DNA of 5,403 nucleotides, from the IMG/VR virus record IMGVR_UViG_2548876959_000002, one strand, 5' to 3'. This document shows, piece after piece, positions 1 to 5,403 of this stretch. A program made the translations under genes and the position numbers. Every line of letters begins with the position of its first letter. Position 1 is the first letter of the stretch. This DNA comes from a virus (lineage: Duplodnaviria; Heunggongvirae; Uroviricota; Caudoviricetes). The notes beneath the pieces were generated by a model that ran no database searches, had not been told where the DNA came from, and was given only the letters and a program-made list of their open reading frames with translations.

Positions 1-59
1 GACTATCACTTATTTAAGTGATACTGGTTGTCTGGAGATTCAGGGGGCCAGTCTAATTC

Positions 60-662
60 TTGGTTAACATGGATAGTATTAAGGGGTCTGGTGCATATTT
101 CCCTATTATCGCTGGCTATAGTAACTTAGGTGATGTTGGTTATCGTCAGTCCTTCGAGTTTGGTTGGACGGGTAGCGGTTCGACTCACGGTTGGCGTACT
201 GGTATTATCCGTATGCGTGGCGATAACGCCAACGGGCAGCAAGCACGCTGGGAATTTACTATGGATGGTGACTTTACCGCAGGTCGTAACGGTAGCTTTA
301 ACGATGTTTACATTCGCTCTGACTCCCGTTTGAAGATTAACAAGGAAGAATTACAGGACGGCGCATTAGAGAAAGTAAACTCCCTGAAAGTCTACACCTA
401 CGATAAAGTTAAATCTCTTTCAGATGACACAGTGATTAAACGCGAAGTAGGTATTATTGCTCAGGATCTGGAAGAAGTGTTGCCGGAAGCAGTAGGTATT
501 CAATCCACCGAAGATCCAGAACAACCGGAAGCAATTAAGACTATTTCTAACTCTGCTGTTAATGCCTTGATTATTAAAGCTATTCAGGAAATGGACGCCA
601 AATATCAAGCTAAGATTGAAGCATTGACTAAAGAGATTGCCGAACTCAAAGCAACTAAATAA
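60..662 (+). CDS. Short fibre-like protein with C-terminal S74-type intramolecular chaperone / autoproteolysis domain
   Basis: Open frame 60-662 with TTG at 60 and first ATG at 69; the true start is uncertain. The C-terminal half carries the S74 hallmark known from endosialidase and tail-fibre chaperone domains: YIRSDSRLKINKEEL (Ser-Asp scissile pair at nt 318-323, Lys five residues on at nt 333-335) followed by GIIAQDLEEVLPEAV. The N-terminal ~87 aa are Gly/Trp/Tyr-rich and beta-like. The same frame has a TAA at 54-56, so this protein cannot extend upstream in frame. Confidence refers to the gene being real; function is by motif recall only. Confidence 0.7.
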   Translation: MVNMDSIKGSGAYFPIIAGYSNLGDVGYRQSFEFGWTGSGSTHGWRTGIIRMRGDNANGQQARWEFTMDGDFTAGRNGSFNDVYIRSDSRLKINKEELQDGALEKVNSLKVYTYDKVKSLSDDTVIKREVGIIAQDLEEVLPEAVGIQSTEDPEQPEAIKTISNSAVNALIIKAIQEMDAKYQAKIEALTKEIAELKATK

Positions 663-669
663 TAAAAGT

Positions 670-688
670 CGGGGGACTAGTTCCCCCG
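670..688 (+). terminator. GC-rich hairpin after the fibre-like gene (weak terminator or RNA-stabilising hairpin candidate)
   Basis: CGGGGGA (670-676) pairs with TCCCCCG (682-688) around the 5-nt loop CTAGT. It starts 8 nt after the TAA at 660-662. No uninterrupted U-tract follows (TAATAACAATTTT), so intrinsic termination would be weak at best. Confidence 0.3.
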
Positions 689-718
689 TAATAACAATTT
701 TAATTAAGGGGTAATTCT

Positions 719-1189
719 ATGTCTCAATTTAATGATATTTTTACTGGTGGTCTGGTAAGTCTGTTCTATCACGCTGATACCACTAACACCGCTCTCGATC
801 ACTCCGGTTACGAAGAAATTAAAGAGTGTGCTGGTTTTCCTGAAACTGGTATCGAGCGCGGTACTGTAGAAGTTAAATCCTTCTCTTCTCAGTATAACCG
901 TAAGCTGGTAGGGAAACTGAACGTTCCTGATCTGACTCTGACCGTTAACTACATCCCAGGCGATGCGGTGCACGAGAAGCTCATTAAAGCTGCCGAAGAC
1001 GGTACTCGAATTCAGATTAAGATTGAATACTATGTTGATGCAGCAAAACAGACTGGTATTCGCACCGCTTTCAACGGCTTTATTTCTAAAGTTGCTATGA
1101 ACGGTGGCGATGAAGAAGTTGTAACCAAAGAGTTTACCTTCGCGGTGGACGGAAAGCCGATCAAACAGGAAATCTTCACTGCCGGATGA
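719..1189 (+). CDS. Major tail tube protein (lambda gpV tube-domain-like, no Ig-like C-terminal domain)
   Basis: ATG at 719 preceded by SD AAGGGG with a 7-nt spacer; 156 aa ending in TGA at 1187-1189. Segments LTLTVNYIPGD / GTRIQIKIEY / FNGFISKVAMNGGDEEVVTKEFTFAVDGKP align by eye with my recollection of lambda gpV (FTLAWMPGEQ / GDTRAYKIRF / [30 protein letters not shown]). Position immediately upstream of the chaperone and tape-measure genes fits. Similarity is judged from memory, not from a search. Confidence 0.8.
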   Translation: MSQFNDIFTGGLVSLFYHADTTNTALDHSGYEEIKECAGFPETGIERGTVEVKSFSSQYNRKLVGKLNVPDLTLTVNYIPGDAVHEKLIKAAEDGTRIQIKIEYYVDAAKQTGIRTAFNGFISKVAMNGGDEEVVTKEFTFAVDGKPIKQEIFTAG

Positions 1190-1315
1190 ACTAACGAAGA
1201 ACTTCCTTTAATAGAACCGGAACCACTACCGGAACATGAAGCGGTGGTGATTCCAGAAGTAGAAGAAGTTACGGCGAAAGCCACAGCAAAACGAGGCCGC
1301 AAGGCTAAGAATTAA
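1190..1315 (+). other. In-frame 41-codon open extension after the UGA stop of the tube gene (candidate readthrough extension)
   Basis: From 1190 to 1312 the tube-gene frame has 41 sense codons and then TAA at 1313-1315. They translate to TNEELPLIEPEPLPEHEAVVIPEVEEVTAKATAKRGRKAKN. There is no in-frame ATG; the only ATG in the region (1236) opens a 4-codon ORF. The terminator hairpin follows this second stop, not the first. Confidence 0.3.
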
Positions 1316-1319
1316 TTTT

Positions 1320-1348
1320 AAGCCCTGCCTTAATGGTGGGGCTTTTTT
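1320..1348 (+). terminator. Rho-independent terminator candidate downstream of the tube gene
   Basis: AAGCCCTGCC (1320-1329) pairs with GGTGGGGCTT (1335-1344), 10 bp including two G-U pairs, around the 5-nt loop TTAAT. It is followed directly by a T-run (GCTTTTTTATT). Confidence 0.6.
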
Positions 1349-1363
1349 ATTGGAGTAATCAAA

Positions 1364-1870
1364 ATGGCAAATGTCGTTAATAAGCCCGGCTGGGTCGGAT
1401 CATCTGCTGTATCGGTGACGGGTAAGCGATGGATGAAAGAAGCATTAACAGCTTTAAAAGTTCCGGCTCCGCGTAATATGTCGGCAATGGCTGGTCGTGG
1501 TATGGATACGGTTGTAGCTACTGCATCGTGGTCTACTTCATTGGGTAATAACTGGGGTGTAACTGCTTCAAACTATCCTGTTTCCGGTATGCAAAGCAAA
1601 GGATCTATGGAGAACCCCGAAAACGTGGGCGTAGGCCGTCTAATTGGCGTTATCGTTGGTCAATTCAATGGCGGTACTCCTACTATGGCTGTATATCTCC
1701 AGAACGGTAGAGCGGGGAATATAACCGTTAATTTGGGTGGTGCTGCTGTCACTGTTCCTTATAACAGTATGCAAAGTGGTTTTCATTACTACTGGTTAAG
1801 CAATCCTCCGGCAGCTTTCCTCAATAACATTAAGAAGACTGGCACTAAGCAGACTTTGAAAATCTCTTAA
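1364..1870 (+). CDS. Hypothetical protein, 168 aa, Gly/Ser/Thr/Asn/Val-rich (possible beta-sandwich structural accessory)
   Basis: ATG at 1364 with SD GGAG at 1352-1355 (8-nt spacer), immediately downstream of the terminator hairpin. There is no N-terminal hydrophobic signal-like segment and no catalytic motif I recognise. Composition and the segment ITVNLGGAAVTVPYN suggest beta-rich structure. Function is unknown. Confidence 0.7.
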   Translation: MANVVNKPGWVGSSAVSVTGKRWMKEALTALKVPAPRNMSAMAGRGMDTVVATASWSTSLGNNWGVTASNYPVSGMQSKGSMENPENVGVGRLIGVIVGQFNGGTPTMAVYLQNGRAGNITVNLGGAAVTVPYNSMQSGFHYYWLSNPPAAFLNNIKKTGTKQTLKIS

Positions 1871-1912
1871 ATTCTAAATAAACATATCGAATTAACTTAA
1901 GAGGAAACAAGA

Positions 1913-2221
1913 ATGAATATTAATGAAATGCTGAAAGCTCTTTCTCCGAAACGCGAATCTCTGACCATCGGTGGATTCACTTTCTATGCTCGCCCTATGT
2001 CAGTAAAAGAATTTAACGAACATGTTTTCAATACCGATAAAGATGACCGTGATGAACGTTCTATTCTTCGTTGTATTGAAGATGAAGACGGTAAACCAGT
2101 ATTTGAATCTATGGAACAAGTTAAGGCACTGTATACTAACGTCCGCAGTGAATTAATCGGTTTGGTTGCTCAAGCGTCATTGATGCAAGATCCGACAGTA
2201 ATTGAAAACGAGGTAAAGTAA
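1913..2221 (+). CDS. Tail assembly chaperone (gpG-like by position)
   Basis: ATG at 1913 with strong SD AAGAGGA upstream; 102 aa, acidic, ending ENEVK then TAA at 2219-2221. It lies directly upstream of the tape measure gene and is overlapped at its 3' end by a -1-frame ORF, the usual G / G-T arrangement. Confidence 0.75.
   Translation: MNINEMLKALSPKRESLTIGGFTFYARPMSVKEFNEHVFNTDKDDRDERSILRCIEDEDGKPVFESMEQVKALYTNVRSELIGLVAQASLMQDPTVIENEVK
2212..2218 (+). promoter_or_regulatory. Candidate -1 programmed frameshift site GGTAAAG, immediately 5' of the G stop codon
   Basis: The -1 frame opens at 2206, after a TGA at 2203-2205, and the G frame stops at 2219-2221, so any shift must occur within 2206-2218. 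The only Lys-slippery element there is G GTA AAG (2212-2218), one base different from the lambda G-T site GGGAAAG. The P-site codon GTA is non-canonical. Confidence 0.4.
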
Positions 2222-2250
2222 ACCCGCTTCTGAATTTCTATTTTCGGCAA

Positions 2251-2592
2251 ATGATGCGATCGGGGCTTAGTAAAGATGAAATGGATAATATGCCAATCAC
2301 TCTGTTTTGGAAATTATACATTTTCGACACCTACTTAGAACCACAAAGCCCCGCGTTTCATGATATGCAGAATGCGATGTTGCAATATTCCATGTATATG
2401 ACGTCGCAAGGAATGACACGCGAAACTGCACGCAAACTCAAGCCTAGCCAATTCCAATTAATTAGAGAAGAAAAACTCTTTAAAACTAAAGAAGAACTGG
2501 AAGAAATTGCACGCAAGAAAGAAGAAGAACGTAAAGCGGCAATGCTGAACATGTTTGATCCATCTTTGCTTGAGAAACTCAGAAGCGGTTAA
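2251..2592 (+). CDS. Tail assembly chaperone T-region (gpT-like), probably expressed as a G-T fusion by -1 frameshift
   Basis: This ORF is in the -1 frame relative to the G-like ORF. The frame is open from 2206, and no SD precedes the first ATG at 2251 (upstream TGAATTTCTATTTTCGGCAA). The product is basic and charged (KTKEELEEIARKKEEERK). It ends at TAA 2590-2592, overlapping the SD of the tape measure gene. Confidence 0.65.
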   Translation: MMRSGLSKDEMDNMPITLFWKLYIFDTYLEPQSPAFHDMQNAMLQYSMYMTSQGMTRETARKLKPSQFQLIREEKLFKTKEELEEIARKKEEERKAAMLNMFDPSLLEKLRSG

Positions 2593-2603
2593 AGGGGTAA
2601 TTT

Positions 2604-5033
2604 ATGACAAAACATATAGTAACAATAGAAGGGGATAATAAAGGTCTAAGGAGAAGTACCAATGAAGCCGCCGACCTTCTCGATAGTTTGTCTGAAAAGG
2701 CAAGTAATATTGATTTTGGTGGTGGCTTATCTGGTCTGACTGGATCTCTTCGTGGGATCGCTGGCTCTGCTGGTTTGGCTGCTGGTGGTATCGGCTTAGT
2801 TGCGACCGCAGTGGTTGCAGCCGCTAAAGCTGGCGCGGAATACGTTAAACAATATTCAGAAGTATCTAAGGCGACCGGACTCTCGATTGAATCCCTTCAA
2901 AGACTGGAAAAGGAATTTTCTGGTACTGGCCTAACAGTTGAAAAATTCGGTGATATCAACAAAGACACCTTAGATAAGATGGGTGATGCATGGGCTAACG
3001 GTGGTGGTATTGCTGATGACTTAGAATCGGTTGGTCTTAAGTTAGAAAACTATGCTCACTTCATGACAGATCCGCAAGGTGGTATGAAAGCGGCGATCCA
3101 AGTGTTCTATGACATGAAGAAAGCCGGAAAATCAATGGCTGAAATCAAGTTCATGATGGAATCTTTAGCCAGTGATTCAAGCCATATGACCAGCCAGCTT
3201 GAGAAATATAATAGTGCTCAAGAGGCGATGATCGCTATTCAGAATCAATCTGTTAACGTCACCGAAGAAAACGCTAAAAAATATGATAAATTTTCTCAGA
3301 ATATTAATAAGCTGGAAAATAACCTGAAAGGCGCAGCCATGACCATTACTGGTCCTTTGGTTGATAGCTTAAACTGGTTATTTGAATGGTTTAATATTGA
3401 TTGGGAAAAGAGTTCTCTATTCAGGGCATTAGACCGTCTGAATAAAGAAGGTAAGACCGCAACTGGTGGTATTCTTAACACCAACCATAAAGACGCTCAA
3501 AAGATTATTGACAAGTACAATAAAGAAAAGCGTTGGAATAATCTAGCAGATTGGGAAAAGGCCGCGATCCGTGGTGCTGGTGTCGATCCTCGTACTGCTG
3601 GCTTTGATGTAGAAGGATTTAAGAAACGTTTTGGTGGGTCTTATAAGAAAAATGGTGCTCTGATTGTCGTAGATGCTGGTGAACATCTGACACGCAAGGC
3701 AGATCCTAACACTGATTTAACTCTACCAAATAAACCAGTAAGACCAGAATCATTGGGTAAATCTGGCAACGAGAAGAAAGCCGAGGAAGAAGCACGCAAG
3801 AAAGCGGAAGAGGCAGCTAAAAAGGCTAAGGAAGCCGCAGAAAAAGCACAGAAAGAACGTGAGGATGCAATCAAGCGTCTGAATGCACTTGATGTTAAAT
3901 TGCAAGGGCAAGTTGCAGCGTCTATTGCTTCTCAAAACAAGCAGTTAGAAGCCAGCTTGAAAGATTTGGATACTGCTTTAGATCTGGGCTTAATCTCTCA
4001 GCAAGACGCAGCCGCGAAACGCCAATCCTTAATCGATCAGAATACTGAAAACGTATACAAGATGATTTTAGGTGCTGATCCGGTTGATGCTCTGAATGCT
4101 TTAACACAATTGCAACAAATCAGGGATAATGAGTTAGAAAGCCATAAACGGTTACTTGATGGTAAGGCTATCTCCTACGAAGAATATATGCGTCGTGTGA
4201 ATGATACCGAACAAAGTTATTCGCAGATTGAAGATTCTTTGCATGGAATGGATGGTTTTAAAACCAATCAGTTGACCAATAGCTTAGACTATCAGGACTC
4301 AAATAATCCGTTTGCTAAATTTAATGCAATCGATAAAGAGAAATCGGAAGCCGAACAAGATTATAAAACCGATAAACTCAAGATTGATGGGATCACCGAT
4401 CCGGCTAAACGGATGGAAGAATTAGAAAAACTCAATGAAAACCATCAAAAACGAATGGCTGCAATTGAGAAGAAATATGCTGATGCTCGCCAGTCAATAG
4501 CCGATGATATGTACGGCGGTTTTGCTGCTGCAATGACTCTCTTCGGGCAGGAAAACACTAAAGCTATGCAGATGGCTTTCAATGCTCATAAAGCATTCTC
4601 TATCGGACAAGCGACGGTGAACATGTGGACGGCTGCTACCGATGCATGGAACGATCCGACCAACGTAACCACAGGTCAAAAAATCGCTGCTGCTGCATTG
4701 GCTGTTTCTCAGAACATGGGGAACATCGCAAACATCAAGTCTACTAACGTTAGCGGTATGGCTCATGATGGTATCGATAATATCCCTCGTGAGGGTACAT
4801 GGTTGCTTGATAAGGGTGAACGAGTAGTTGATCAGCGTACTAACGGTGATTTGAAAGACTTCCTTGCTGCTCAAAAATCAGGCGGTGGCAACTCTCAGCC
4901 GATTGAAGTTAACGCACCTTTGAACATTAACGGCAACGTTAATAGCTCAGACAAGATGGTCATGGATGCTATCAAACGTCACGCTAAGTTAGTTGCTCAG
5001 GCGGTAGAAGACGCACAACGCCGTAAGATGTAA
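2604..5033 (+). CDS. Tail tape measure protein
   Basis: 809-aa ORF with SD AAGGGG and a 7-nt spacer. It has an N-terminal Gly/Ala-rich hydrophobic segment (aa 39-78), a long charged alpha-helical segment (EKKAEEEARKKAEEAAKKAKEAAEKAQKERE), and a C-terminal region with the motif GMAHDGIDNIPREGTWLLDKGERVV, which resembles the conserved C-terminal motif I recall from lambda-family tape measure proteins. Size, composition and position after the G/T pair all fit. Confidence 0.93.
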   Translation: MTKHIVTIEGDNKGLRRSTNEAADLLDSLSEKASNIDFGGGLSGLTGSLRGIAGSAGLAAGGIGLVATAVVAAAKAGAEYVKQYSEVSKATGLSIESLQRLEKEFSGTGLTVEKFGDINKDTLDKMGDAWANGGGIADDLESVGLKLENYAHFMTDPQGGMKAAIQVFYDMKKAGKSMAEIKFMMESLASDSSHMTSQLEKYNSAQEAMIAIQNQSVNVTEENAKKYDKFSQNINKLENNLKGAAMTITGPLVDSLNWLFEWFNIDWEKSSLFRALDRLNKEGKTATGGILNTNHKDAQKIIDKYNKEKRWNNLADWEKAAIRGAGVDPRTAGFDVEGFKKRFGGSYKKNGALIVVDAGEHLTRKADPNTDLTLPNKPVRPESLGKSGNEKKAEEEARKKAEEAAKKAKEAAEKAQKEREDAIKRLNALDVKLQGQVAASIASQNKQLEASLKDLDTALDLGLISQQDAAAKRQSLIDQNTENVYKMILGADPVDALNALTQLQQIRDNELESHKRLLDGKAISYEEYMRRVNDTEQSYSQIEDSLHGMDGFKTNQLTNSLDYQDSNNPFAKFNAIDKEKSEAEQDYKTDKLKIDGITDPAKRMEELEKLNENHQKRMAAIEKKYADARQSIADDMYGGFAAAMTLFGQENTKAMQMAFNAHKAFSIGQATVNMWTAATDAWNDPTNVTTGQKIAAAALAVSQNMGNIANIKSTNVSGMAHDGIDNIPREGTWLLDKGERVVDQRTNGDLKDFLAAQKSGGGNSQPIEVNAPLNINGNVNSSDKMVMDAIKRHAKLVAQAVEDAQRRKM

Positions 5034-5037
5034 TTAA

Positions 5038-5083
5038 AAGCCCCCATAGTCATAAATAATCATAAAACTATGGGGGCTTTTCT
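5038..5083 (+). terminator. Long hairpin with U-rich tail between the tape measure gene and the next gene (terminator or attenuator candidate)
   Basis: AAGCCCCCATAGT (5038-5050) pairs perfectly with ACTATGGGGGCTT (5067-5079), 13 bp, around the 16-nt A/T-rich loop CATAAATAATCATAAA. It is followed by TTTTCT and then the ATG at 5084. The loop is large for a classical intrinsic terminator. Confidence 0.5.
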
Positions 5084-5371
5084 ATGTTCAAATCCAAGAA
5101 TATTAAAATCACAGATTTTACTCTTAAATCAAAACAGCCTTTCTTCAAGGCGCAATCTATCTCCGGTAAATTTCAACGTCGCTTTACTGGCATTCATTTT
5201 TACGAAGCAGAATTTACCGCGAATTACATGGCTCAGGATATTAACGAAGTAAAAGAATTTGTAGCACGTCACCTTTTTGGTCGTCCTTTTAGTGTGCCAC
5301 TGTCTTACTTTTCAAAATATACAGGTGATGTACGCCAGATGGTTACGGCGGTAATGACTCCAACTTATTGA
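5084..5371 (+). CDS. Small minor tail protein (gpM-like by position and size)
   Basis: 95-aa ORF immediately after the tape measure gene, ending in TGA at 5369-5371. Size and position match lambda gpM-type minor tail proteins; my sequence recollection is too weak to assert homology. The only SD-like sequence (GGGGG, 5072-5076) lies within the 3' arm of the upstream hairpin. Confidence 0.65.
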   Translation: MFKSKNIKITDFTLKSKQPFFKAQSISGKFQRRFTGIHFYEAEFTANYMAQDINEVKEFVARHLFGRPFSVPLSYFSKYTGDVRQMVTAVMTPTY

Positions 5372-5403
5372 TAGTGTTTTATGTTCAGATAATGCCCGAT
5401 GAC

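Follow-up and report, generated by a model that had tools for sequence, protein, structure and literature searches.

The window, the whole stretch of 5,403 nucleotides that was analysed, is a prophage remnant in E. coli, cut and flanked by insertion sequences. It carries a phage structural gene, an open in-frame region behind the stop codon of this gene, several predicted RNA structures and an intrinsic terminator (Table 1); the next gene downstream of the terminator starts at position 1364. Because of its condition as an IS-flanked remnant, expression of the feature as part of a virion is improbable in the window's own genome.

Table 1. Features of the tail tube locus and the evidence for each (positions in the window; + is the strand shown).
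Feature	Positions	Strand	Evidence or remark
Major tail tube protein gene, predicted lambda gpV-like fold	719..1186	+	ORF, 156 codons
Proposed leaky stop with its context, TGA ACT	1187..1192	+	Family pattern TGA A[C/A]T
Unpaired 10-nt spacer ACTAACGAAG, from the stop to the first helix pair	1190..1199	+	Equal length in all sequence classes
Putative readthrough extension, part 1: acidic Pro/Glu-rich linker TNEELPLIEPEPLPEHEAVVIPEVEEVT	1190..1273	+	Open in all relatives
Extended RNA stem-loop	1200..1270	+	MFE and centroid structures, z = -3.75
In-frame GTG GTG codons, possible starts of a small ORF	1244..1249	+	Sequence
Mini-hairpin GGC-GAAA-GCC with GNRA tetraloop, directly 3' of the large stem-loop	1273..1282	+	Invariant in the E. 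coli set
Putative readthrough extension, part 2: Ala/Lys/Arg-rich basic tail AKATAKRGRKAKN	1274..1312	+	Basic character kept
Small hairpin GGCC-GCAA-GGCT within the basic-tail coding region	1295..1306	+	Predicted fold
Second stop TAA, end of the extension	1313..1315	+	4 nt upstream of the called terminator stem (1320)
Intrinsic terminator: 10-bp stem, 5-nt loop, then T-run	1320..1350 (hairpin 1320-1344)	+	Predicted fold

The upstream gene had been taken for a tail tube gene, and this attribution holds. Its product matches the Pfam family PF16460 (Phage_TTP_11) with 29 bits against a cut-off of 28.4. The best Foldseek matches of the AlphaFold model of a relative's tube product are the tubes of lambda (gpV), YDC107, 80alpha and SPP1, with E-values of 1e-6 to 1e-7 for lambda gpV, YDC107 and 80alpha. 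The gene adjoins a chaperone pair and a tape measure gene, lying directly upstream of both; this synteny fits a lambda-like siphophage, and the RefSeq label of the gene is 'phage tail tube protein'. The family match, the modelled fold and the gene order support the assignment of the gene at 719-1186 to tail tube genes of the lambda-like siphophage type.

The tube ORF ends at a TGA followed by A, and the same frame continues as TNEELPLIEPEPLPEHEAVVIPEVEEVTAKATAKRGRKAKN (41 codons) up to a TAA, behind which the terminator is located. This arrangement, described in the original prediction, was confirmed in the sequence. In mononucleotide shuffles, the 123-nt extension stays open in frame with P = 0.11, in agreement with the chance of about 0.1-0.15 estimated earlier, so that the window taken alone is not significant.

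Relatives of the locus were gathered in several ways. A set of close relatives (n = 24) was retrieved with the tube protein alone and is independent of the conserved core of the element. A nucleotide-defined set comprises 90 instances representing 33 distinct variants; core conservation in this set is partly circular, since part of it was fetched with a pattern derived from the core, and the sets retrieved by protein similarity are free of this problem. A 14-mer core search was too unspecific, giving mostly chance matches, and was replaced by an 18-base pattern; one further candidate family member (L119/L171) was discarded as a chance match of the pattern. The comparison to be made had been set beforehand, and concerned an intact TGA, an open frame, the absence of frameshifting indels and a coding signature. 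TGA|ACT with an open extension of 36, 39 or 41 codons was found in all 24 close relatives. An in-frame TGA followed by A, placed after a long ORF, is present in 90 of 90 nucleotide-defined instances, with an open frame of 28-45 codons. All 33 distinct variants have A after TGA, the bases following the stop being A[C/A]T. Reversion of TGA to a sense codon, or drift to TAA or TAG, was not observed among the 90 instances. A 198-residue 'fused' protein (P0001) was considered as a natural sense-codon version and rejected as an artefact: the codon in its DNA is a TGA that the gene caller had translated as Trp.

In each of the 33 variants, which come in 10 different lengths, frame 0 is free of stops and frames +1 and +2 contain them. 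None of the reverse frames is open in all 33 variants, on which ground an antisense ORF at 1030-1302 was rejected. At least seven independent length changes have occurred in the extension (3, 3, 6, 6, 15, 27 and 48 nt), all of them multiples of three, whereas two 1-nt indels are found within about 50 nt just downstream of it. The pN/pS ratio in frame 0 is 0.38 for tubes, 0.66 for capsids (see below) and 0.57 overall, as compared with 0.78-1.10 in the shifted frames (1.0-1.1 for tubes); frame 0 is the one with a ratio below 1 and the lowest value, although the variants are closely related and the pairwise statistics are therefore not independent. In the 3' half of the extension, diversity at the three codon positions is 0.066/0.018/0.088; in the 5' half it is nearly flat (0.087/0.113/0.131). 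Synonymous diversity is 0.09-0.13 in the extension versus 0.245 in the tube gene. The coding signature is, thus, modest to moderate rather than strong. The comparison came out in favour of the prediction on all the points set beforehand.

The choice of stop codon is also unusual for the genome. In the 29 kb examined of an intact prophage, 25 genes are annotated, 21 of which end in TAA. The native TGA stops in it belong to the capsid and tube genes only, a third TGA being located in an IS2 end. The stop expected of recoding, TGA in the context TGA-A, stands at these genes, against mostly TAA elsewhere.

In the same prophage family, the major capsid gene is followed by a paralogous cassette consisting of TGA ACT, 42 codons (TPVEPSEPSPDSGEENLIPKPEEESQTVTAKATAKRGRKPKE), a stop and a terminator. 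The capsid extension has an acidic Pro/Glu/Ser linker, then ...AKATAKRGRKPKE. Retrieval by protein similarity yielded 41 E. coli-type capsid loci, all of which have this cassette, even where the capsid allele is only 38% identical to the query. A Providencia prophage has a related arrangement behind its capsid gene: TGA ACT AAC GAA G is followed by a hairpin of 12 bp and by GGA-GAAA-TCC, and the extension stays open for 25 codons (TNEELPEEEPLPVATEKSTKRRKSK). The annotation treats the 'gaps' of about 130-190 nt at the 3' side of cassette-bearing capsid and tube genes as non-coding in every record examined. Cassette-less relatives have TAA or TAA TAA immediately upstream of the terminator, and TAA is also the stop of 38 of 40 remote capsid homologues.

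So far, the element has been seen in prophages and metagenomes only. Nucleotide searches of isolated phages, in near and distant modes, gave no match to it, and neither did a tblastn search of phages with the 41-residue extension. The nearest isolated phage, DCP80, has a tube protein with 45% identity, and its tube and capsid genes end in TAA without a cassette. Scans of genome contigs revealed no relatives of the tube and remote relatives only of the capsid. A pattern for short, Providencia-like cassettes found none in viral contigs, and the Providencia capsid used as a query matched E. coli loci only.

The extension had been read as a Pro/Glu-rich linker with a basic tail, and the composition of both parts is kept among relatives with diverged sequences. 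The linker appears as TFEEQPQPIQDEPTVIPE in some tubes and as TPVEPSEPSPDSGEENLIPKPEEESQTV in capsids. The basic tail is maintained with different codons and sequences, including KRSRKAKD, KRGRKPKE, KKQRKTKE and KKVGRPPKAK, as well as TKRRKSK in Providencia. Disorder is predicted for the extension, and the analogy with an Ig-like domain drawn in the original prediction therefore fails. An AT-hook (PF02178) was sought as a GRP core with basic flanks scoring above the Pfam threshold; the sole match, the capsid variant KKVGRPPKAK, reached 13.2 bits, below the cut-off of 17.4, and the window's tail KRGRKAKN had no match. Short basic tails are fused directly to the proteins of many cassette-less relatives. 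Salmonella capsids, 82% identical to the Providencia capsid, end in ...EASKAK or ...PAGRSK, Salmonella tubes end in ...SRK or ...ARK and an Edwardsiella tube has the C-terminus ...VIPEAVAAKEK.

The RNA downstream of the stop is predicted to form a two-part stem-loop. Its closing helix pairs 1200-1205 with 1265-1270 and 1207-1210 with 1260-1263, and an inner hairpin pairs 1219-1222 with 1251-1254 and 1224-1231 with 1242-1249. A stem-loop starting 10 nt after the stop is present in all 33 variants (z from -1.1 to -6.3), the spacer is of this length in every sequence class and the alignment columns A4, T6, G10, A12 and G13 are invariant. Across the classes, 7 of the 11 pairs of the closing helix show double (compensatory) changes. 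The number of cells changed on both sides is 34, compared with 12.6 ± 3.8 after shuffling, and none of 500 shuffles reached the observed value; the covariation score is 0.292 versus 0.06-0.13 in slid controls, on the basis of about 4-5 independent sequence classes, within which almost no paired position varies. RNAalifold applied within the classes showed almost no covariation, the sequences being too similar. A conserved, covarying helix, the 3' structure expected of a readthrough signal, thus lies near the stop, behind a spacer that is 1-3 nt longer than the 7-9 nt known from other systems.

The mini-hairpin with the GNRA loop is replaced in Providencia by GGA-GAAA-TCC, a compensatory change. 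Although this element was part of the search pattern, the searches by protein similarity also gave only loci that contain it. The inner hairpin (1219-1254) was considered as the key element and rejected, being missing in tubes of the L019/L020 type and containing substitutions that break pairs without compensation. The hairpin in the basic-tail coding region is not a conserved element either, because it is missing from the KKQRKTKE capsid variants. The general RNA elements are, therefore, the closing helix and the GNRA hairpin only. The terminator is near-invariant among relatives (pi = 0.019). A search of Rfam gave no match at the gathering score; the sole match, anti-hemB, overlaps the terminator and scored 18.2 bits against the required 49.5 (E = 0.91).

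The conservation of stop, frame and composition makes it likely that the UGA is subject to programmed, or at least selectively maintained, readthrough, giving rise to minor extended tube and capsid proteins. The original prediction had proposed a leaky UGA and a minor extended tube protein with a linker and a basic tail, and the sequence comparison supports this proposal. A small share of the tube and of the capsid protein would then probably bear an acidic linker that ends in a basic tip.

The strong, conserved and covarying RNA structure invites another explanation, which we consider unlikely. The element may be a non-coding structured 3' cassette of about 130 nt, with a stem-loop and a terminator, that stabilises or processes the capsid and tube mRNAs or sets the efficiency of termination. 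It would have been copied between genes, and the open frame would be a by-product. Structure alone, for example one that stabilises the mRNA 3' end, could account for much of the nucleotide conservation, and the cassette lies just behind the two structural genes of greatest abundance, a place where protection by a 3' structure would be of use. The reduced synonymous-site diversity, the near-invariant terminator and the weak codon periodicity in the 5' half of the extension are also consistent with it. However, a non-coding cassette leaves unexplained why frame 0 is open in every variant over 10 lengths when the other forward frames always contain stops, and why all of the indels preserve the frame next to a region with 1-nt indels. 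The constant TGA-A stop in a prophage using TAA, the persistence of the basic tail in different sequences that have no common fold and the occurrence of a similar basic tail inside the ORF of cassette-less relatives are not accounted for either.

It seems less probable still that the region is a decaying remnant of a longer ORF, whose ancestral linker and tail were truncated by a nonsense TGA, the rest being as yet undecayed or kept for its RNA structure. Relatives with directly fused basic C-termini could represent such an ancestral state. Decay does occur, since the Edwardsiella capsid gene has a visibly decayed cassette: its stop context is TGA TAC, the frame closes after 9 codons and the core contains a 1-nt indel. 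The TGA and the open frame have nevertheless outlasted sequence divergence, replaced segments, in-frame indels and three tail sequences, in two genes and two genera, with no instance having returned to a sense codon or moved to TAA or TAG. A pN/pS below 1 in frame 0 only is also not expected of a remnant.

The extension was originally said to have no start codon of its own, which is wrong: the two GTG codons listed in Table 1 are in frame. An independent small gene might thus encode a peptide of 22-23 residues, M-(V)IPEVEEVTAKATAKRGRKAKN, from GTG 1244 or GTG 1247, possibly by reinitiation after the UGA. All tube variants have at least one in-frame GTG in the extension, and the best-conserved part of the extension is located downstream of it. 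The GTG codons, however, lack a convincing Shine-Dalgarno sequence upstream and are situated within the 3' arm of the predicted inner hairpin, which is stable. The capsid cassettes have no conserved internal start (the one in the window's own prophage lacks any start, and elsewhere there is a TTG at codon 11 or just a late GTG), so no start is conserved across the extension family. In addition, the part upstream of the GTG retains its frame through indels and its acidic, Pro-rich composition. A separate gene is, therefore, very improbable.

Dedicated decoding of the UGA, as selenocysteine by means of a SECIS-like hairpin or by a phage-encoded suppressor tRNA, is hardly credible: the fixed distance of about 10 nt between UGA and hairpin superficially resembles the E. 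coli fdhF SECIS, whose upper stem is spaced 11 nt from UGA, but the apical loops differ wholly between classes (GAACAUGAAG, GAUUY, GAAA and AAGAACCG), none of them has the conserved SelB-binding loop of the SECIS consensus, the examined 29 kb of the intact prophage contain no tRNA gene and Rfam has no match.

In the favoured case of maintained UGA readthrough, most ribosomes would stop at UGA 1187-1189 and release the 156-residue tube protein, and a minority would read the UGA as a sense codon and translate 41 further codons as far as TAA 1313-1315. TGA is the leakiest stop in E. coli; Trp is the main residue inserted there, and rates can reach several percent or more (PMC11126739). Decoding here would most likely be by tRNA-Trp, and a stop-spanning peptide of the readthrough product would have Trp at the stop position, e.g., EIFTAGWTNEELPLIEPEPLPEHEAVVIPEVEEVTAK. 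The product would comprise the tube protein, a disordered acidic Pro/Glu linker and a Lys/Arg/Ala-rich tip. The signal would consist of UGA-A (UGA-AC, as in Qbeta), the fixed 10-nt spacer and the stem-loop at 1200-1270 with the GNRA mini-hairpin. With UGA in the A site, the stem-loop would abut the ribosome and might plausibly raise readthrough.

The paralogous cassette follows the capsid gene, so that both major virion proteins may exist as a predominant short species and a rarer tailed one. The C-terminal domain of lambda gpV and T7 10B are both exposed on the virion, and by analogy the tails would probably project from the virion surface. It can be speculated that projecting tails attach to polyanions (the cell envelope, mucus or DNA, for instance).

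The closest parallel is the coat/A1 system of Qbeta (Fiersviridae), an ssRNA phage that also infects E. coli and has a leaky UGA at the end of its major structural gene. This parallel, already drawn in the original prediction, extends to the local stop context TGA AC (TGA ACA in Qbeta, TGA ACT here). The A1 protein is a minor, C-terminally extended virion protein, the extension of which opens with a flexible Pro-rich linker, as is proposed here, and in both cases there is no natural variant fusing the two parts at full stoichiometry. In contrast to the tailed dsDNA prophage, with about 40 disordered residues, a cassette on two genes and a conserved helix after the stop, Qbeta is an RNA phage with a folded extension of about 195 residues that is needed for infection. 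We know of no 3' RNA structure that forms part of the Qbeta readthrough signal.

As to the RNA, there is a resemblance to viruses of eukaryotes. An extended 3' stem-loop stimulates UGA readthrough in alphaviruses, tobra-, peclu- and furoviruses and coltiviruses (Firth et al. 2011, PMC3159437). The alphavirus and plant-virus stimulators were found through reduced synonymous diversity and have a spacer of 7-9 nt and a stem of 10-12 bp or more (PMC3159437). The E. coli element resembles them in having UGA, then a few unpaired nucleotides and a long-range stem (about 9-12 bp) around a variable insert, as well as compensatory changes and reduced synonymous-site variation. The eukaryotic-virus signals operate on eukaryotic ribosomes, their stop is followed by CGG or CUA and their loops measure about 100 nt, whereas the present element, a putative stimulator, has a bacterial host, A as the following base and an insert of 4-60 nt.

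Frameshifting is a familiar form of recoding at the 3' end of phage structural genes, and SPP1 gp17.1* is one recoded C-terminal extension of a major structural protein. Recoded extensions have been described for T7/T3 10A/10B and for the Cps and Tsh proteins of the Listeria phages PSA, A118 and A500 (PMC5009743). In all of these, as proposed here, a fixed minority of the capsid and/or tail protein bears a C-terminal segment owing to recoding at the 3' end of the gene, and in the Listeria phages the capsid and tail genes are both recoded. Unlike the present case of in-frame readthrough into a disordered, charged tail, these systems use -1, +1 or +2 frameshifting and mostly add Ig-like or FN3 domains. 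Lambda gpV has the same tube fold, and the extension described here starts at the attachment point of the gpV Ig-like domain; that domain, however, is folded, is made without recoding and is present on every subunit.

To our knowledge, stop-codon readthrough in phages is essentially confined to Qbeta and its relatives, and no report of readthrough in the capsid or tube genes of tailed DNA phages was found in the literature. Nor is a bacterial readthrough signal stimulated by RNA structure known to us. The element may conceivably represent one, with UGA-A, a 10-nt spacer, a stem-loop and a GNRA hairpin forming a portable cassette behind capsid and tube genes that equips a set minority of subunits with an acidic tether and a polyanion-binding tip, although we would put the chance of this full reading at somewhat under even. 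If true, readthrough would be added to the expression toolkit of tailed phages, and the architecture of stop, spacer and stem-loop, hitherto seen in eukaryotic viruses, would have a bacterial case, making the role of mRNA structure in 70S termination directly testable in E. coli. Annotation pipelines would be missing a class of virion protein isoforms, and phage engineering would gain a natural low-copy display site on head and tail.

A further possibility concerns the terminator. Since the second stop lies only 4-6 nt before the terminator stem, ribosomes that read through would occlude the terminator, possibly coupling the frequency of readthrough to transcription of the downstream morphogenesis genes. 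The distance from the second stop to the terminator is about the same as that from the true stop to the terminator in cassette-less relatives.

The tube gene, which encodes the major tail tube protein, ends at TGA 1187-1189 with A as the next base, and 41 sense codons follow in the same frame before TAA 1313-1315; a terminator (hairpin 1320-1344 and a T-run) is located after this second stop. These features, from which UGA readthrough had been proposed, can be read directly from the sequence. The accompanying chance estimate of 0.1-0.15 for the open stretch is also borne out. As shuffled versions of its 123 nt stay open with P = 0.11, the window sequence alone is weak evidence for readthrough. 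The extension, the open frame between the two stops, was said to have no start codon of its own; this is incorrect, since GTG GTG is in frame at 1244-1249.

A readthrough extension was expected to keep its TGA and its frame in related phages, and it does so. Scanning IMG/VR with the tube protein only, blind to the downstream DNA, yielded 24 close relatives (82-100% protein identity). In 24/24 the stop is TGA followed by ACT, with varying last sense codons before it (GGA, GGT, TCT, GCT), and the frame is open for 41, 39 or 36 codons, closing in TAA. The only indels are in-frame ones of 6 and 15 nt; two 1-nt indels are present in the ~50 nt past the second stop of the same alignment. One segment of the extension has been replaced, with the acidic Pro-rich composition kept (TFEEQPQPIQDEPTVIPE... 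vs TNEELPLIEPEPLPEHEAVVIPE...). No cassette (TGA-A, open extension, RNA structure, second stop and terminator) follows tube genes at 71-73% identity (E. coli), at 55-63% (Salmonella, Providencia, Edwardsiella) or at 45% (phage DCP80). Tube genes without the cassette stop at TAA or TAA TAA, with a terminator a few bases later, and several of their proteins possess a short fused tail with a basic end, e.g. ...VVGSRK, ...ASARK and ...VIPEAVAAKEK.

When E. coli genomes were searched in distant mode with bases 1150-1420 of the window, extra matches (78-80% identity) appeared in unannotated DNA directly 3' of the gene for the major capsid protein in the same prophage family. The product of this gene is an S78 prohead protease fused to an HK97-type capsid protein. 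In the prophage that is the intact counterpart of the one in the window, TGA ACT closes this gene and is followed by 42 open codons (TPVEPSEPSPDSGEENLIPKPEEESQTVTAKATAKRGRKPKE) with no in-frame ATG, GTG or TTG, a stop and a similar terminator. A scan with a capsid-protein alignment, blind to the extension, retrieved 80 loci. All 41 E. coli-type capsid loci have TGA, A and an open extension of 28, 33, 42, 43, 44 or 45 codons, including alleles just 38% identical to the query, which was of the other E. coli allele type. Cassette-bearing capsid loci, with 28-45 codons and a terminator, comprise L002 (5320-7378), L038, L039, L335-L366 and L380-L383; IS2 additionally interrupts the capsid gene in L002. 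Among remote capsid homologues, 38/40 have TAA as their stop, often behind an Ala/Lys-rich tail (...EAKSKA, ...AKAPASK, ...NKATAAGK). Such in-frame tails precede TAA in many of them (L367-L385, L324, L421, L422; also EAKAGK and EASKAK), and ...RK or ...SK forms the C-terminus of related tube proteins, so that a basic C-terminal tip seems to be a family trait of capsid and tube proteins.

Outside E. coli, the capsid gene of a Providencia prophage ends in TGA ACT AAC GAA G, with 25 open codons (TNEELPEEEPLPVATEKSTKRRKSK) before TAG and a terminator. Salmonella capsids 82% and 65% identical to it end in ...IQKVEASKAK and ...VMKAPAGRSK, respectively, each with TAA and an immediate terminator. Close relatives thus have either a direct short basic tail or a longer linker with a basic tail behind a UGA. 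An Edwardsiella capsid gene illustrates decay: it has TGA TAC, its frame closes after 9 codons and the core, the conserved nucleotide pattern of the cassette, contains a 1-nt indel. In phage DCP80 (L001 ~580-720), the capsid stop TAA ACC TAA is followed by a hairpin, a separate 21-codon ORF (MSLGAEALDAAPVKKSKSASG) and a terminator; this ORF may correspond to the basic tail in another arrangement, or be due to chance.

The RNA of the cassette has a stable fold in every variant (z -1.1 to -6.3 vs shuffles; z = -3.75 vs dinucleotide shuffles for the window including the terminator). The architecture common to all sequence classes comprises 10 unpaired bases past the stop, then a helix closing the whole variable part of the extension and, immediately 3' of this helix, a mini-hairpin. 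Conservation of an inner hairpin (1219-1254) was not found across variants. With the classes aligned in a fixed register, anchored on the stop and the mini-hairpin, compensatory double changes occur in 7/11 pairs of the closing helix, 34 cells are changed on both sides vs 12.6 +/- 3.8 when shuffled (0/500 shuffles reach 34), the covariation score is 0.292 vs 0.06-0.13 with slid partners and 84% of cells are paired vs 22-47% slid, the counts resting on just four or five independent classes with almost no variation inside a class. The Providencia mini-hairpin is GGA-GAAA-TCC, in which the pair is kept and two amino acids are changed. Synonymous diversity is 0.09-0.13 in the extension vs 0.245 in the tube gene, which fits a second constraint overlying the coding constraint. 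In alphaviruses and several plant viruses, UGA readthrough stimulators are defined by this same reduction along with a spacer of 7-9 nt and a long-range stem of 10-12 bp (PMC3159437).

Genes of the window and elements of its predicted RNA fold
Feature	Position	Remark
Tail fibre gene, C-terminal part	60-662	truncated by insertion-sequence end
Tube gene	719-1189	
Closing helix	1200-1205 with 1265-1270; 1207-1210 with 1260-1263	predicted fold of window
Mini-hairpin GGC-GAAA-GCC	1273-1282	directly 3' of closing helix
Small gene with Gp38_N adhesin domain	1364-1870	168 residues; domain 2e-15
Tail assembly chaperone pair	1913-2221 and 2251-2592	
Tape measure gene	2604-5033	
Truncated ORF at right-hand window end	5084-5371	

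A purely non-coding stabiliser or terminator cassette would account for this RNA structure and is an improbable, though not negligible, alternative; it leaves unexplained the frame, the indels in multiples of three, the choice of stop codon and the fused tails of relatives. Searches with the core pattern added metagenomic instances. On a nucleotide-only definition (the core plus the terminator start), the total is 90 instances. All 90 have an in-frame TGA followed by A behind a long ORF, and TAA, TAG or a sense codon is found at the TGA position in none of them. In the 33 distinct extension sequences, the upstream frame continued past the TGA (frame 0) is open in 33/33, the +1 and +2 frames contain stops in 33/33 and none of the reverse frames is open throughout the set. 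The length changes, at least seven independent ones (3, 3, 6, 6, 15, 27 and 48 nt), are each divisible by three; without frame constraint, seven such changes would have a probability of (1/3)^7, about 5e-4. The selection signature anticipated for a coding extension was detected, with a frame-0 pN/pS of 0.38 (tube), 0.66 (capsid) and 0.57 (all), against 0.78-1.10 in shifted frames. The C-terminal tails KRGRKAKN, KRSRKAKD, KRGRKPKE, KKQRKTKE, KKERKTKAK and KK(V/A)GRPPKAK differ in codons but are all Lys/Arg-rich, and a local hairpin is possible in only some of them. In 29 kb of the intact prophage, 21/25 annotated genes stop at TAA and one at TAG; native TGA stops are confined to the capsid and tube genes, a third TGA lying inside an IS2 end. 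The sole database protein that looks fused (P0001, 198 residues) was rejected as a natural form, being a gene-calling artefact with the TGA read as Trp.

It is distinctly less likely that the extension is a decaying remnant of a longer ORF, as the TGA and the frame have outlasted later divergence, both in the two genes and across two genera. Independent initiation at the in-frame GTGs is very unlikely, being contradicted by the capsid copies and by conservation of the frame upstream of the GTGs as well. Decoding of the UGA as selenocysteine or by a suppressor tRNA, for which no supporting result was found, is hardly credible.

The best-supported reading of the cassette is leaky decoding of the UGA. 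TGA is the least efficient stop in E. coli and is mainly decoded as Trp; its readthrough varies with context and conditions and can range from less than one percent up to several percent or more (PMC11126739). The tube site, TGA ACT, resembles the Qbeta coat/A1 site, TGA ACA. With the UGA in the A site, the helix would start at the point where the mRNA leaves the ribosome and, judging by this position and by analogy, could favour near-cognate decoding over RF2. Readthrough would lengthen the tube protein by ~42 residues, one inserted at the UGA and 41 from the extension. In an AlphaFold model of a relative's product, the tube core is confident (pLDDT 84-93) and matches lambda gpV and other siphophage tube proteins, and the extension is unstructured (pLDDT 38-53). 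In gpV, the equivalent point leads into an externally exposed Ig-like domain, and T7 10B likewise has an exposed C-terminal extension; by analogy, the tails would probably project from the virion surface. A resemblance of the tail to an AT-hook was under the Pfam threshold and was discarded.

Full-text literature searches found readthrough in Qbeta and eukaryotic viruses, but no report of it in tailed-phage capsid or tube genes, where it would be new. The extended capsid and tail proteins known from T7/T3 and from the Listeria phages PSA, A118 and A500 arise by frameshift (PMC5009743), unlike the stop-codon readthrough proposed here.

The window represents part of an E. coli prophage of the siphovirus type. 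Over bases 56-5349 it matches NZ_CM149869.1 with 100% identity and ~20 further complete E. coli chromosomes with 91-97%. Of bases 1-55, 40 match exactly at IS2 copies of the intact prophage and mark an IS2 end, and the last 54 bases (5350-5403) are presumably IS1 terminal sequence. Bounded by insertion-sequence ends, which truncate the tail fibre gene and the right-hand ORF, the window copy is a prophage remnant; its cassette is probably inert. Inclusion of these ends explains the ~10,000 E. coli records matched by the window search.

Some genomes have the capsid cassette, a tube gene ending in TAA TAA and no gp38-like gene, so the capsid copy is the commoner of the two; the tube gene probably acquired its copy later, along with the gp38-like gene. 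The Gp38_N protein, encoded between the tube and chaperone genes, is restricted to prophages with the tube extension; an Edwardsiella relative has a full GP38 gene directly after the fibre gene, before the tube gene. A stretch of 36 nt, GTTACGGCGAAAGCCACAGCAAAACGAGGCCGCAAG, is identical in the tube and capsid cassettes of a single prophage (L002 7189-7314 vs window 1190-1312), and other prophages combine differing tail types. These patterns suggest that the two cassettes have undergone gene conversion or recombination with each other, and that both sites are subject to mosaic exchange.

The chaperone pair has a likely -1 frameshift site at 2206-2221, where the T frame is open from 2206 and the G frame meets its stop at 2219-2221. 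A classical XXXYYYZ heptamer is absent from this region, and a slip on A_AAG (2215-2218), adjoining the TAA, is the obvious candidate. A G+C-rich hairpin, CGGGGGACTAGTTCCCCCG, at 666-690 lies directly 3' of the fibre gene's double stop TAA TAA and was called terminator-like on the minus strand by a terminator scan.
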